From: an uncultured delta proteobacterium | GTDB lineage: Bacteria; Myxococcota_A; UBA9160; SMWR01 | Assembly: GCA_963832165.1 (NCBI GenBank) | Contig: CAWHTE010000007.1 | Coordinates: 800,001 to 864,000 of the forward strand | Length of the DNA stretch: 64,000 bases | Direction of reading: 5' to 3' | In this document: positions 13,927 to 18,407 of the stretch, piece after piece | Position numbering within the stretch: the first letter of the stretch is position 1 | Layout of the letters: each line of letters begins with the position of its first letter | Made by a program: the position numbers and the translations under genes | Notes under the pieces: model-generated | What the model saw: only the letters and a program-made list of their open reading frames with translations | What the model was told of the DNA's origin: nothing | The model's database searches: none

Positions 13927-14208
13927 CGAACCCCTTCCCGCGGGCTTCGCATTTCGGCCCCGGCGCGCCTCGCTCTTCTCACTCGATCCCCAACGTGATC
14001 GCGCTTCCCGTTCGATCCTGGCGCGCCCCCGCAGGTGCGCACCGTCCGGATCTCTTCCCACCGCGAGCGCCGGCGGGGCGCCCGGGGGACGGGCCGAGTT
14101 CTCGCGCCTAACCCCGCGATTTCGCTCATGTGGTCTTCGCCCGCACGCGCGGCGAGTCAGCGTACGCCCGCGCCGGGCTCGCTCCCGCGGGCGCTCATCC
14201 TGGTGAGC

Positions 14209-14230
14209 GAACTGGATTCAAATCCAGTTC
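14209..14230. repeat. AT-rich palindrome GAACTGGATT-CA-AATCCAGTTC (copy 2)
   Basis: Perfect 10-bp arms; matches the copy at 9..29. Confidence 0.8.
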
Positions 14231-14357
14231 ACGGCCGCAACTCCGCGGGTTGTTCGACGACTCGCCCAGGATGGCGACCCGAGGCGACCAAGAAACAATT
14301 ATCCAGCGAAATTTTCGCAGCCTAACTCCCGAACCCGCAGTGCAACTCGGCGAATCT

Positions 14358-14387
14358 CCGACACGTTCCCCGATCGCCCCGTACAAT
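14358..14387 (+). promoter_or_regulatory. Candidate cassette promoter (Pc-like)
   Basis: CCGACA-N18-TACAAT about 50 bp upstream of the attI-like site. Confidence 0.35.
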
Positions 14388-14427
14388 AGGCTGCGAGCTC
14401 TCGCAGTATTCGCTGCATGGGAGCGCA

Positions 14428-14446
14428 AGCTAATAAGTAGTTAGGC
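14428..14446 (+). other. attI-like integron recombination site
   Basis: AGCTAAT-AAGTA-GTTAGGC has the L box / 5-bp spacer / GTTRRRY geometry of attI simple sites; first cassette starts here. Confidence 0.7.
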
Positions 14447-14459
14447 GGCCGAGAAGCGA

Positions 14460-14958
14460 ATGCTCCGTTTCCCAGTCTTCGCCATCGCCCTGTTCTCTGT
14501 TCTGTCATCGCTCGCCCACGCTGCGGAGCCCACGAAGGCGGAGCGGATACTCGTCGAGAAGGCAGCCCCGGCGCCTCACCTTGTTCGCAGCCGGAGGGCC
14601 CATTCGGTCCTACACCGTTTCCCTAGGCGGCAATCCGGAAGGTCCCAAGGAGAGAGAGGGAGACGAACGCACACCGGAGGGGCTCTACTCCATCAATGCT
14701 CGAAACCCCAAGAGTTCCTTCCACCGCTCCCTTCAGATCTCGTATCCCAACCCCAAGGACCAAGCCCGCGCCGCCGCCGCGGGTGTTAACCCCGGGGGCC
14801 TCATCATGATCCACGGCATTCGCAACGGGCTCGGTTGGGTCGGCCGCCTCCATCGATTCCTGGATTGGACGGACGGTTGCATCGCGGTCACCGACACGGA
14901 GATGGATGAAATTTGGGAATTGGTCCAGGTTGGTACTCCAGTAGAGATCAAACCTTGA
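14460..14958 (+). CDS. Cassette 1: L,D-transpeptidase (YkuD-like), one apparent frameshift near 14567
   Basis: Signal peptide and ILVEKA in one frame; GDERTPEGLY, SYPN, GGLIMIHG, WTDGCIAV in the next. Confidence 0.88.
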
Positions 14959-15121
14959 GCAGTCGGCCGCCTAACAAGGGATCATAAGTAGGTCACGTCC
15001 TCGATCGAGGCGCGCTGCATGGGAAGGCAGCATCGAGGCGCGGTGGCGGTCTCCTCCGCTGGGGACATGCTTCGGGTTGAAACACGACCTGGGCATGGAC
15101 GCCCAACGAAGGAGGACCGCA

Positions 15122-16176
15122 ATGGAACGCTATCTCGGAGCCGACGTGCACGCCGCGAGTGTCACGTTCTGCGGGTTGGATGCGTCGGGGAAGCAGATCC
15201 GGCGCGACGTGGTGGAGACGAATGGGAAGGCGCTCGTGGGCTACCTCCAATCGTTCGCGGGGAATCTGCACTTGTGCATCGAGGAAGGCGAGTGGAGCCA
15301 GTGGCTCTACGAGATCCTCTCGCCCCATGTGGACGAGCTCGTCGTGTACCGCGGTGAGTGGAAGCCGGGCCAGAAGAGCGACGCGATCGACGCGCATGGG
15401 CTCGCGGAGAAGCTGCGCACCGGGGGGATCAAGCGGCCGGTGTACAAGGACGCGAAGCTCTTCACGGCGTTGCGCGATCGGGCTCGGACGTACACGATGG
15501 TGACCCGGGACGTGGCGCGGGTGAAGAGTCGACTGAAGAGCTTCTTTCGGTCTCGCGGCCTGCCGTGTGCGGGCGACGCGCTGTACAAGCTCGAGGAACG
15601 GGCGAAGCGTGCGCAGGCGCTGCCGCCGGCGACACGGGAAGCCGTCGAGCTCCTGGGACGCGAGCTCGATCAGCTCGAAGCGCTCAAGGCCGAAGCGGAA
15701 GCGGCGATGCTGCGCGAGTCGCATCGGCATCGGATCGCGCGGATCCTCGAGACTGCGCCCGGGCTCGGTCCGATCCGGGTCGCGCAGATGCTGCCGATCG
15801 TGGTGACCCCGTACCGCTTCCGCACCAAGCGGCAGTTTGGGCCTACTGTGGCTTTGGGGTCGTGATGCGGTCGTCGAGCGACTGGGTGCAGGACCAGGGC
15901 CGATGGGTGAAGGCTCGGGTCGTGCAGACGCGCGGTTTGAACTTCAACCACAACCGGATGCTCAAAGCGATCTTCAAGGGCGCGGCCACGACCGTCGTCG
16001 CGCACTGCGGACCGAATCCGCTGCGCGAGGGCTACGACCGGCAGCTCGAGAACGGCACGAAGCCGAACCTGGCCAAGCTCACGGTGGCGCGGCAGATCGC
16101 CGCGATCGTGCTGGCCATGTGGAAGACACAGGAGGAGTACGACCCCGGGAAGATCCACAATCTCGTCACCCACTGA
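15122..16176 (+). CDS. IS110-family transposase/recombinase (apparent single-base frameshift near 15837)
   Basis: AGGAGG RBS; YLGADVH, CIEEG, KSDAIDA (DEDD residues); APGLGPI; the next frame continues WAYCGFGVVMRSSS..NRMLKAIF..ARQIAAIVLAMWK. Confidence 0.92.
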
Positions 16177-16234
16177 TCGCTCTGCATCGACGGAGCATCG
16201 TCTGCTACAGCGAGATCTGGATCTCCGGGGCACA

Positions 16235-16365
16235 GGGTCGAGGGGAAGCATCCGTGCCAACGCGTGGCCGCGACTGCGGTTGCAGGCCCAATAACAAGGA
16301 TATGCCCCCTCGCAGGACCGAATGAAGCGATGGCCTTCGAGGCCCCGATGGAAGCATGGTTCGCA
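16235..16365 (+). ncRNA. Putative bridge/seek RNA core (two guide-bearing stem-loops); ends approximate
   Basis: TAACAAGG (16292..16299) equals the attC target flank; ATGGAAG (16348..16354) equals the IS end flank; each lies 2 nt after an AGGCCC stem arm. Confidence 0.75.
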
Positions 16366-16492
16366 AGCCCGCACGCTTCACGGCCCGAGGAGAACGCGGA
16401 GGAGGATGGCGGATGGACCCGTACGGTGCCGATCGATCGAATGATGCCTGGACGTTCGACGCCGCTAGGTCGAATAACGGAGTACCATGCTC

Positions 16493-16498
16493 TTGACA
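16493..16498 (+). promoter_or_regulatory. -35 box (TTGACA) of a predicted circle-junction promoter
   Basis: 17 bp from the IS right end; circularisation places GATCAT (14980..14985) at the -10 position. Confidence 0.7.
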
Positions 16499-16638
16499 TC
16501 GCCTACTATGGAAGGCGCTCTAGCTGACCGGCCTGCGTTCTATCGGAATCTGATAGAGTGTGGCAAGGCAGCTCGGGTGGCGTTGCGGAAGGTTCCCGCT
16601 GGCCGCCAGCTGAGCGCCGATCCGTTGGGCGGCGTGAA

Positions 16639-16989
16639 GTGAGCCGAATCGCGAGAGTGCTCTCGATGGTTCTTCTCGCTGCGTGCGCCTGCGGAAATCC
16701 CGCCGGCTTCGCCGACGTCACCCCCGCGTCTCCGATCTTTTCTCGCCCTTCTCTTGATCCGTTTGGGGGGTGGGATTGCGAGCCGGTTGGCGTCGTGACG
16801 GTTCCAGCCCGCAGCGTAGGTTTCACCGACAAGTATTTCGGGTTTGCCGAAGATGAGTTTCACCAGTCAGTGACAACTCAAACAAAGCGGCTCGGGGCGA
16901 TTCTTGTTGTTATGAGCGAAGAAGCTGATCTCGAGGCTATTGCATCGTCGGGCGAGCCTTTCCAGGCTTCCGCCTACCGCTGCAGGTAG
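16639..16989 (+). CDS. Cassette 2: hypothetical lipoprotein
   Basis: GTG start just after R'; hydrophobic leader ending LLAAC/ACAC; stop just before attC2. Confidence 0.7.
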   Translation: MSRIARVLSMVLLAACACGNPAGFADVTPASPIFSRPSLDPFGGWDCEPVGVVTVPARSVGFTDKYFGFAEDEFHQSVTTQTKRLGAILVVMSEEADLEAIASSGEPFQASAYRCR

Positions 16990-17001
16990 GTTTCCCACGC
17001 C

Positions 17002-17158
17002 GCCCAACAAGCGGTTGCAGCTGGCGGCCGCCTGCTTTGGTTGCAGTGCGGCGTCACACGGCCGACGGCCGCCGGCCCGGTGGTTGACGCGCAGCGGCCG
17101 CCGGATTGATACTCGGAGACACGCGGGGCGGCTGTAGCTGAACCGCGATCCGTTGGGC
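17002..17158 (+). other. attC site of cassette 2 (157 bp)
   Basis: R'' GCCCAAC, L'' GCGGTT(G)CAGCT, L' AGCTGAACCGC, R' GTTGGGC. Confidence 0.92.
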
Positions 17159-17178
17159 AGCGAAACTTGGGGTAGTGG

Positions 17179-17460
17179 ATGGCCGAATCGCTCGTCGCGG
17201 GCTTGGAACTCATCCGCGAAATCGCGCGGGCCCTCGCAGATCGACCGTCGTCGAGGGTTGCAGCGATCAGTCGGATTCTGGGAGTGGGATTTTTCTATCT
17301 TGTGCTCGGAGCGCTTGGTGCGCTCGCTCTGGACTTTGGTCCGCCACGACAGGTCGTCGTTGTACTCGTATTTTCCCTACTCGCCGCACTTTCTTGCAGT
17401 CTCGTTTGCCTCCTTTCGCGTTTGCGCTCGAAGACTCGACTCGACCCATCCGGTGATTGA
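17179..17460 (+). CDS. Cassette 3: small two-TM membrane protein, possibly 3'-truncated
   Basis: Two hydrophobic stretches; its stop codon falls inside attC-derived sequence. Confidence 0.55.
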   Translation: MAESLVAGLELIREIARALADRPSSRVAAISRILGVGFFYLVLGALGALALDFGPPRQVVVVLVFSLLAALSCSLVCLLSRLRSKTRLDPSGD

Positions 17461-17531
17461 CGCTCCGCGGCCGCCGGGTTGATACTCGGAGGTACGCGGG
17501 GCGGCCGTAGCTGAGCCGCGACGCGTTGGGC
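17450..17531 (+). other. Truncated attC (right half only)
   Basis: 72/82 identical by manual alignment to 17077..17158; no R''/L'' half upstream. Confidence 0.85.
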
Positions 17532-17544
17532 GACGTGATTCGAG

Positions 17545-17961
17545 ATGAAGACTCATCTGACAGCGCTCACGGCCGTATCCCTCGGTTCGCTCGCTTCAGC
17601 GTGCGCTTCGTCGACCGACGCGCCGATCCACTACTCCCATCCGCCCGCGATCCAGGTCGACTATCCGGATGTAGCGATGCCTACCGTCTCCACCCCAGAC
17701 TTCATGCCGGAGGTCGTCCCCGAAGCGACCGTTCCGCTCAGGACTCCGGACGCACCCGCGTCCACGGCGTTCATTTGTGGTGGCATTACGATCGCGCCAG
17801 CTCCTGAGCTCTACGGCACGACGTGGAGAGTACGCTCGATCTCGAGTACGCGGACATCATCGCAAACGCGTCTCACCGAGGAAGAACGCTACTTCTCGGA
17901 TTGGTACGACGACCTCAAGCAACCAACTGTCATCTTCCACTTGGAACCCGTGTACCGATGA
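17545..17961 (+). CDS. Cassette 4-type hypothetical lipoprotein (no downstream attC seen)
   Basis: ATG 14 bp after R'; MKTHLTALTAVSLGSLASAC leader with lipobox-like Cys. Confidence 0.65.
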   Translation: MKTHLTALTAVSLGSLASACASSTDAPIHYSHPPAIQVDYPDVAMPTVSTPDFMPEVVPEATVPLRTPDAPASTAFICGGITIAPAPELYGTTWRVRSISSTRTSSQTRLTEEERYFSDWYDDLKQPTVIFHLEPVYR

Positions 17962-18407
17962 AGCTCGTCCAGGAGTTCACCCTCACCGCAACGCTGAAGC
18001 CGCCGCTGCCGATCGGGGCCGGCCCGATCGGTACGCGCATGTACTACGAGGTGATCAGCGGAGCGATCACCGGCGAGCGGCTGCGCGGGACGCTGCTCGG
18101 CGGCGGCGAATGGGCGCTGATCGGACCGGACGGCTTTCTGAGGATCGATGTGCGTCTGCAGGCCGAAACCCACGATGGAGCCTACCTCTACATCCAGTAC
18201 ACCGGCCTCCTCGAATTGAACGAGGCTGTTCAGCGTGCGCTCGCGAGCGGCAAGGGCACCGACTTCGGCGAACAGTACTTCTTCACGAACCCGCGTATCG
18301 AGACCGGCGACAAGCGATACGCGTGGCTCAACACGACCTTCTTCATCGGCGAAGGTCACGCCCTTCCGGCGCTCGGCGTCGGGTATCGCGTCTGGCGCCC
18401 GGCTTGA
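17958..18407 (+). CDS. DUF3237 family protein
   Basis: IGAGPIGTR..GERLRGTLLGGGEW..DVRLQAETHDGA..ETGDKRYAWLN. Confidence 0.88.
   Translation: MKLVQEFTLTATLKPPLPIGAGPIGTRMYYEVISGAITGERLRGTLLGGGEWALIGPDGFLRIDVRLQAETHDGAYLYIQYTGLLELNEAVQRALASGKGTDFGEQYFFTNPRIETGDKRYAWLNTTFFIGEGHALPALGVGYRVWRPA

Follow-up and report, generated by a model that had tools for sequence, protein, structure and literature searches.

A predicted two-loop guide RNA that would aim an IS1111-type insertion sequence at integron attC sites

Introduction

We analysed 64,000 nucleotides of DNA from an uncultured delta proteobacterium (GenBank assembly GCA_963832165.1, contig CAWHTE010000007.1, positions 800,001 to 864,000 of the forward strand), here called the window, to which all positions refer unless another contig is named. 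An insertion sequence of the IS1111 type, IS-A, lies in the window within what we read as an integron attC site, and the segment 16237-16364, downstream of its transposase gene (tnp), very probably encodes the guide RNA, a bridge RNA or long seekRNA, that aims the element at attC. Comparison with related elements points to this function: the fold is conserved, three of the four guide strands covary with the DNA, and the two loops have the same core. By analogy with the work on IS621, ISEc11 and ISKpn4, the RNA would be produced, would bind the transposase and would take part in strand-exchange chemistry of the same kind.

ISKpn4 is a plasmid-borne element. Together with ISPst6 it targets one end of attC sites, and in both cases an 82-86-nt seekRNA from the downstream non-coding region co-purifies with the transposase; a seekRNA was predicted likewise for ISPa25 (Siddiquee et al. 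2024, PMC11187229). The most distant transposase pair of this IS1111-attC group is quoted at 46% identity (PMC11187229). More generally, 93% of IS1111 elements were predicted to carry a bridge RNA in their right end (Durrant et al. 2024, PMC11208160).

Results

Two loops carry copies of target and donor DNA

The first-pass annotation of this DNA had described two loops with a common layout, each holding a word identical to DNA at one junction of the element, and its coordinates, stems and identities are all present in the sequence. Loop 1 is closed by CGAGGGG (16239-16245) with CCCCTCG (16306-16312) and reads CCG-N10-TGGCC (16252-16269), then AGGCCC (16284-16289), AA and the guide TAACAAGG, whose bases 16292-16299 are exactly those at 14972-14979, left of the insertion point. 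The layout recurs in loop 2, where GGACC (16315-16319) pairs with GGTTC (16358-16362), CCG-N10-TGGCC occupies 16318-16335, and AGGCCC (16340-16345) and CG precede ATGGAAG (16348-16354), an exact copy of the right end of IS-A (16508-16514). AAG terminates both guides. On the opposite loop strands, ATGA (16322-16325) complements TCAT (14982-14985) of the left end, and CCAACGC (16257-16263) complements GCGTTGG, the actual site reading GCGCTCT (16515-16521); one loop strand is DNA-sense and the other antisense. The earlier suggestion that CAACGC would suit an attC variant with GCGTTG is borne out by an unoccupied attC with an exact GCGTTGG, which lies about 0.7 kb from a second copy of IS-A on contig C5 of the same genome. 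Both guide words occur only once within IS-A (14980-16500), at the guide positions. Dinucleotide-preserving shuffling of 16177-16500, repeated 20000 times, produced the 8-mer in 21 cases and the 7-mer in 734, and in no case both. The features are collected in Table 1.

Table 1. Features of IS-A, its predicted guide RNA and the flanking attC sites, in window coordinates
Feature	Position	Strand	Description
Two-loop bridge/seek RNA module (predicted), 128 nt	16237..16364	+	41-sequence alignment; consensus fold; covariance model 142 bits
Target-binding loop (loop 1)	16240..16311	+	Outer stem GAGGG+GCAU (16240-44, 16248-51) with AUGC+CCCUC (16302-05, 16307-11)
Variable inner hairpin of loop 1	16266-16288	+	Inner-stem pairs: 6 to 12 sequences with both sides changed
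Right-target guide, 5' strand of loop 1, TGCCAACGCG	16255..16264	+	Complementary to GCGTTGG
Left-target guide, 3' strand of loop 1, TAACAAGG	16292..16299	+	Left target TAACA, core AG, first left-end base
Donor-binding loop (loop 2)	16315..16362	+	Outer GGACCG (16315-20)/UGGUUC (16357-62); inner GGCC (16332-35)/GGCC (16341-44)
Left-donor guide ATGGAAG	16348..16354	+	Right end ATGGA plus core AG
IS1111-type insertion sequence IS-A	14979..16514	+	1536 bp in the window copy, including one core copy
Left end of IS-A	14979..14997	+	First base G = guide position 8; GATCAT 14980-14985; arm AGTAGG 14987-14992
Right end of IS-A	16493..16514	+	TTGACA 16493-98; arm CCTACT 16502-07; terminal ATGGAAG
Transposase gene (tnp)	15122..16176	+	DEDD/RuvC-like domain and IS110 C-terminal domain; frame change at T-run 15836-15838
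Left part of attC no. 1	14966..14978	+	R'' box GCCTAAC within GCCGCCTAAC, spacer AAG; last bases (A)AG = crossover core
Right part of attC no. 1	16515..16633	+	L'', central region, L', R' GTTGGGC 16624-16630
attC no. 2, unoccupied	17001..17160	+	Starts CCCAACAAG then CGGTTGCAGCTG

The guides change together with their DNA

Sixty-five related loci were collected, 20 from genome contigs by a protein-based scan and 45 from metagenome contigs by a DNA pattern of the RNA scaffold. The 20 genome-contig loci were found at 40-91% identity, and they come from metagenome-assembled genomes of Gemmatimonadota, 'delta proteobacterium', Acidobacteriota and other labels. The protein of one relative, L002:1842-2894 (minus strand), gave a sub-threshold match to the NCBI model of the TIGR-Tas RNA-guided endonuclease (50.8 bits vs a cut-off of 100, residues 122-313). 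The loci hold 51 distinct RNA sequences, of which 40 were aligned with that of the window (41 in total). The 11 left out were L015, whose RNA is identical to that of the window, the near-duplicates L052 and L072, six with long inner-hairpin insertions (L025, L031, L053, L054, L058 and L079), and L041 and L063, with mis-trimmed 3' ends.

The left-target guide follows its site closely. Twenty-eight elements had a readable left junction, L022 having been dropped for its mislocated left end, and they carry 14 distinct guide 8-mer classes. The 8-mer equals the eight bases before NATCAT in 16 of the 28 and differs by 1 or 2 mismatches in the other 12. Counted over the five variable positions, 66 of 70 are identical in cognate pairs, compared to a mean of 1.87 of 5 in non-cognate pairs, and 0 of 100000 permutations reached so high an identity. 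Examples are TGTAAGG (L019), TCCATAGA (L020 and L076), TAGCAAGG (L043), TAGACAGG (L067) and TGGCAAGA (L073). The window copy matches its own site at 8 of 8 bases. Where the guide is TAACAAG and the right junction is readable, 19 of 20 elements have an attC-type right flank.

The right-target guide also follows its flank. Among 38 elements, the longest run complementary to an element's own right flank averages 5.16 nt, compared to 3.22 nt for the flanks of others, with 0 of 20000 permutations as high. Runs of 8 to 10 nt were found in L020, L035, L065 and L076; generally, attC-aimed elements have runs of 3 to 6, and those aimed elsewhere more often 6 to 10.

The donor guide 7-mer is the same as the right-end 7-mer in 28 of 38 relatives, and guide and right end change together in three classes: ACGCAAG (L022), ATAGAAC (L027, L030, L032) and ATGGACG (L035). 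Mismatches fall mostly in the group with the guide ATGGATG, whose junctions have assorted cores. A subgroup with TG in both guides (L024, L037, L040, L048, L060, L071 and L074) shows the junction cores AG, CG, CA, AA and CC, some of which fit G-U pairs and others not; loose core matching, off-target events or misread ends may account for them. The core itself, positions 6-7 of the left guides, is the same in both loops in 40 of the 41 aligned sequences (AG in 30, TG in 7, AC in 3), the exception being L035 with TG vs CG.

Position 8 is an extra base of the left guides. In the left-target guide it agrees with the base that opens the left end in 19 of 23 elements, a set that includes L022 with its mislocated end (114 of 100000 permutations as high), and with the next target base in only 18 of 38. 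For the donor guide it equals the first right-flank base in 22 of 38 (76 of 100000 permutations as high) and the first left-end base in only 6 of 23. The window copy fits in the target loop (G at 16299 and 14979) and does not fit in the donor loop (C at 16355 vs G at 16515). In both loops, the left guide therefore tends to agree with the junction of the integrated element, which insertion produces and excision uses as its substrate. The handshake guides of IS621 adjoin the right guides and, once the strands have been exchanged, pair with the non-cognate DNA (PMC11208158); the position-8 pattern could be their mirror image. Since the relatives are not independent, we treat this as a lead and not as a result.

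These patterns bear on the possibility that loop 1 alone guides, as the equivalent of a short seekRNA, and that loop 2 is a protein-binding scaffold whose ATGGAAG is like the right end for some other cause; both might, for example, be DNA motifs bound by the transposase. An 82-nt seekRNA of ISEc11 with target matches only sufficed for movement (PMC11187229), loop 1 with its outer stem measures 72 nt (16240-16311), no covariation with the left end is seen in the 5' strand of loop 2, and loop 2 is conserved far more than loop 1. We nevertheless consider such a division of labour very unlikely: the loop 2 guide has changed with the right end in three independent classes, its core dinucleotide tracks that of loop 1, and at position 8 it tends to carry the base with which the right flank begins.

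The fold is conserved and its energy is ordinary

The consensus fold of the 41 sequences has 25 pairs, 11 of them with compensatory changes. These changes maintain four stems and are concentrated in the hypervariable inner hairpin of loop 1, whose four central pairs are changed on both sides in 6 to 12 sequences; loop 2 varies far less. A covariance model made from these 41 sequences gives the window RNA 142 bits and also finds its twin on C5, with no other match in the window. It does not match the RNA of a second IS1111-type element on contig C2 (L012) or the IS110-family loci L003 and L009-L011 of the same genome, so that either these use other scaffolds or the model is too narrow. Guide covariation among homologues, which the first-pass annotation had proposed as a check, is seen for the left target, the right target and the right-end donor guide; with the compensatory stem pairs, it backs the central claim made there, a two-loop RNA that addresses both an attC target and an end of the element.

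Among sequencing runs, 20 records contain part of the window and none contains half of its words. Four of them (X18, X19, X20 and X1) were compared with it; all are contigs, which carry no starts, ends or levels, so that parts left uncovered are uninformative. One contig of 1011 nt from X18, an RNA-library run, is about 90% identical to 15647-16537 and reaches from tnp across the RNA and the right end to a flank that resembles attC; neither RNA ends nor strand can be read from it. X19 and X20 are probably DNA.

Several observations weigh against a guide RNA here, or against the force of the comparison. First, the fold of 16177-16515 is not more stable than shuffled sequences (z = +0.62; 68 of 100 fold as well), and thermodynamic stability was therefore discarded as an argument; the fold, put forward earlier as a check, speaks for an RNA through the pairs conserved in the alignment and not through its energy. 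Second, an Rfam search by E-value over 14000-18000 found no family at the RNA. Third, the right-target guide of the window copy has a run of only 3 nt with its own flank, which is chance level. Fourth, the 5' strand of loop 2, which the first-pass annotation had paired through ATGA with TCAT of the left end, has a 4-nt match without covariation: NATCAT stands in all 29 left ends that could be read in relatives, and because ATCAT is invariant while the opposite RNA base alternates between T and C, we rejected this strand as a fourth guide. Fifth, the tnp frame of the window copy is broken at the T-run 15836-15838. Sixth, the ends of relatives were found by the motifs NATCAT and TTGACA with regular expressions, by which some loci were missed or misread, and the left end of L022 and the right end of L002 were mislocated. 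Seventh, the relatives share ancestry, so the permutation counts overstate independence. Lastly, the X18 contig shows that a relative was present in the library and could be DNA carry-over.

Some of these points would also suit an account in which the copies of flank and end are DNA-level features, for instance binding sites close to the ends or traces left by past recombination, and not parts of an RNA; the X18 contig is the only RNA-library evidence, and the fold energy is not distinctive. We judge this account extremely improbable, given that compensatory changes preserve four stems, that the loop strands are sense and antisense, as RNA-DNA pairing to both DNA strands requires, and that related elements have been found experimentally to use such an RNA (PMC11187229; PMC11208160).

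The target is one end of attC

The site of IS-A carries the boxes expected of attC, R'' GCCTAAC at 14969-14975 (RYYYAAC) and R' GTTGGGC at 16624-16630 (GTTRRRY); the same boxes are found in the sites on C2 and C5. The right flank includes GATCC-GTTGGGCGGC (16619-33), in which GTTGGGCGGC (16624-16633) contains R'. When the two halves were rejoined by script, R'' paired with R' and L'' with L', the latter with bulges, and the spacer stayed open, at -41.8 kcal/mol for the top and -34.9 kcal/mol for the bottom strand folded as DNA. The R'-type motif occurs in the window at 16620 and 17148, with a third, variant R' at 17508-17531, at 5 sites within 3.7 kb on C2, and at 2 sites beside the twin on C5. 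On contigs C2, C5 and C7, attC-type sites are spaced 0.4 to 2 kb apart, all in one orientation, with short open reading frames (ORFs) between them.

No integron integrase exceeded the cut-off of TIGR02249 in this assembly, which is 89% complete; the profile gave 5 matches, the best at 72.6 bits vs 265. This absence would speak for an assignment of the repeats to another palindromic family. Clusters of attC that lack an integrase are known, however, and the R'' and R' boxes, the paired and bulged L''/L' with its unpaired spacer, and the recurrence in one orientation between short ORFs make a family other than integron attC very unlikely.

Several relatives occupy comparable sites. L015, L044 and L057 lie in sites with the right half of attC no. 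2, and L041 and L051 in sites with CAACAAG on the left. L017 (1552-2100) follows TAACAAG and stands directly against the left end of a C2-like element; its right-target guide CATCTC complements GAGATG of that neighbour's left end and seems aimed at an occupied attC. A 40%-identical relative with an Acidimicrobiia label, L027 (3628-4100), has the guide GCCTA+AC and the donor guide ATAGA+AC and immediately follows the TAAC of an attC-like site, which places it three bases upstream of the position of IS-A, with a right-guide match of 7 nt (AGCGCCT to AGGCGCT).

Two further IS110-family lineages of the same genome have entered attC sites. L012 (G000:C2:367993-369402, minus strand), with a transposase 26% identical to that of IS-A, sits at the same position in an attC, after TAACAAG, within a clear array; its 3' region contains TAACAAG and ATGGAAG, and its right end also ends in ATGGAAG. 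A third element of about 1.2 kb is present in two identical copies, L010 (G000:C1, ~234.3-235.5 kb) and L011 (G000:C11, ~96.7-97.9 kb), each of which directly adjoins the R' end of an attC (GATCCGTTAG, then the element) in the opposite orientation. This genome thus holds three distant lineages, all of which insert at attC.

The cassette array of the window spans 14304-17535. It begins with a probable attC (~14304-14447) and a cassette encoding YkuD (L,D-transpeptidase, PF03734), followed by the interrupted attC no. 1, an ORF (16640-16989), the unoccupied attC no. 2, an ORF (17179-17460) and a partial attC (~17460-17535). The sole Rfam match within 14000-18000 is tRNA-Sec-like and lies at 14189-14267, with 33.7 bits vs a gathering score of 47; ARAGORN calls no tRNA there, and the match may represent a piece of a tRNA that closely precedes the array.

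IS-A and its transposase

The bounds of IS-A are known from a twin at G000:C5:195378-196913, since the identity of the two copies stops at the first and last positions of the element. The copies differ by a single T, and the twin occupies another attC at the same position and in the same orientation. AAG stands at both junctions of IS-A (14976-78 and 16512-14) and is all that they share, and the two copies in two attC sites indicate an insertion that is specific for site and orientation and leaves no long target duplication. The non-coding stretch downstream of tnp measures 338 nt (16177-16514), compared to 143 nt upstream (14979-15121). The subterminal inverted repeat has 6 bp (AGTAGG/CCTACT); in relatives the arms have 5 to 8 bp and change together at both ends, as in AGAAAGC/GCTTTCT and GAAGG/CCTTC. 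Those of the IS1111 group are given as 7-17 bp (PMC11208160).

The ORFs 15077-15865 and 15358-16176 are two frames of a single tnp gene. One extra T in the 15836-38 run gives the C5 twin an open frame of 351 amino acids. The word 'complete' in the first-pass annotation is therefore not apt for the window copy, which, if its break is real, would depend on the twin. A DNA contig of run X1 carries the extra-T form and leaves the frameshift of the window undecided, because it may derive from the twin. The YkuD gene (14460-14958) has an apparent frame change of its own near the C-run 14566-14569: the 14460 frame encodes the signal peptide and the 14581 frame the domain. Homopolymer assembly errors may therefore be common in this genome, and the broken tnp may be one of them.

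PF01548 matches the N-terminal part of the window protein (E = 2.8e-10) and the intact twin at 39.5 bits vs a cut-off of 29, and PF02371 matches the twin at 37.4 bits vs 21.3. The putative DEDD residues, read off the twin sequence, are D8, E54/55, D87 and D90. Ser252 of the twin aligns with the ESG serine of the IS621 transposase (8wt6_A), in a weak alignment (E = 0.066), and the serine motif reads SS, not SG. The NCBI profile for the IS110 family RNA-guided transposase, NF033542, scores 112.9 bits, below its cut-off of 140, and aligns over the full length (protein 4-338, profile 1-342 of 343), which marks a diverged member of the IS110 family and not a non-member. The best tblastn match among 72,556 plasmids (PLSDB), where 232 records match, has 28% identity; this comparison with plasmid records suggests that the lineage may be separate from the IS1111-attC group. 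At least 3044 relatives reach E <= 1e-10 among 8000 candidates scored, and their names are only 'transposase', 'hypothetical protein' or 'IS110 family transposase'.

A promoter proposed across the circle junction

TTGACA lies 16 nt from the right end of IS-A and, across the junction of a circular form, 17 nt from GATCAT of the left end. Its distance from the right end is fixed in 49 of 51 relatives. A promoter scan of the linear sequence 14900-16700 returned 0 promoter-like sites, and the promoter that we propose, with TTGACA as -35 and GATCAT as -10, would be assembled only where the two ends meet in the circle. Such a role would fit the fact that ATCAT and TTGACA do not vary, and a junction promoter of like kind is reported for ISEc11 (PMC11187229, citing Prosseda 2006).

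Discussion

IS-A belongs to a kind of element that was described in 2024, since ISKpn4 and ISPst6 (by experiment) and ISPa25 (by prediction) were published as attC-targeting IS1111 elements with seekRNAs (PMC11187229); it is a diverged addition to that kind, from a distant lineage of soil bacteria, and brings no new mechanism. Like these three, IS-A has a predicted guide RNA segment in the non-coding region downstream of tnp, a target at one end of attC, subterminal inverted repeats, though of only 6 bp, and close relatives naturally redirected to other sites. It shares with IS1111 seekRNAs the position of the top-strand match 5' of the bottom-strand match. IS-A differs from the three in having a transposase far from plasmid proteins and SS in place of SG at the serine motif. 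In ISEc11 and ISXne4, described in the same paper, related transposases have a conserved RNA scaffold whose guide bases follow a different insertion site, as here; the clade of IS-A differs in having at least 14 guide classes in one alignment and in being known from sequence alone.

The closest counterpart to the two-loop layout is the bridge RNA of IS621, which, in the accounts of PMC11208160 and PMC11208158, likewise has one internal loop for the target and one for the donor, a core common to both and, in each loop, one strand that pairs with the bottom strand left of the core and one that pairs with the top strand right of it. In contrast to IS621, where the RNA lies in the left end and the core is CT, the RNA of IS-A lies in the right end, the order of strands in each loop is reversed and the core is AG. 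The cross-matching base of IS-A stands beside the left guides, whereas the handshake guides of IS621 stand beside the right guides, and a right-donor guide pairing like that of IS621 is unsupported in IS-A.

On this model, IS-A would excise as a circle in which the right end is joined to the left end across the AG core. The junction would create the promoter TTGACA-17 nt-GATCAT, driving tnp and the RNA behind it, and the RNA would fold into two internal loops. The 5' strand of loop 1, CCAACGC, would pair within the L'' box with top-strand bases immediately to the right of the core, and the DEDD/serine transposase would exchange strands at the common AG, placing IS-A in one orientation between the R'' spacer and L''.

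It is possible, if doubtful, that IS-A represents a separate deep branch of IS1111-type elements, abundant in uncultured soil bacteria, with no name in any source and set apart by three features jointly. First, the extra base of both left guides would match the recombination product, as the mirror of the handshake guides of IS621. Second, attC may be targeted almost wholly through the left guide on the conserved R''-spacer, with a loose right guide, so that one element could enter attC sites of many sequences. Third, the three mutually distant IS110-family lineages in this genome would make attC a convergent landing pad.

What is particular to IS-A is its diverged transposase lineage. Its predicted RNA is a fully readable natural example of a bridge/seek RNA, since the sequence by itself allows three of the four guide strands to be assigned, and the reprogrammability claimed for it in the first-pass annotation is suggested only insofar as relatives have been retargeted naturally. 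That clade has been retargeted to at least 14 sites on one conserved scaffold, and its guide classes are raw material for the design rules of IS1111-type systems, which are less studied than IS621. The arrays described here would be integrase-less environmental cassette arrays colonised and split by RNA-guided elements; because insertion separates R'' from L'', it should block excision of the neighbouring cassettes.

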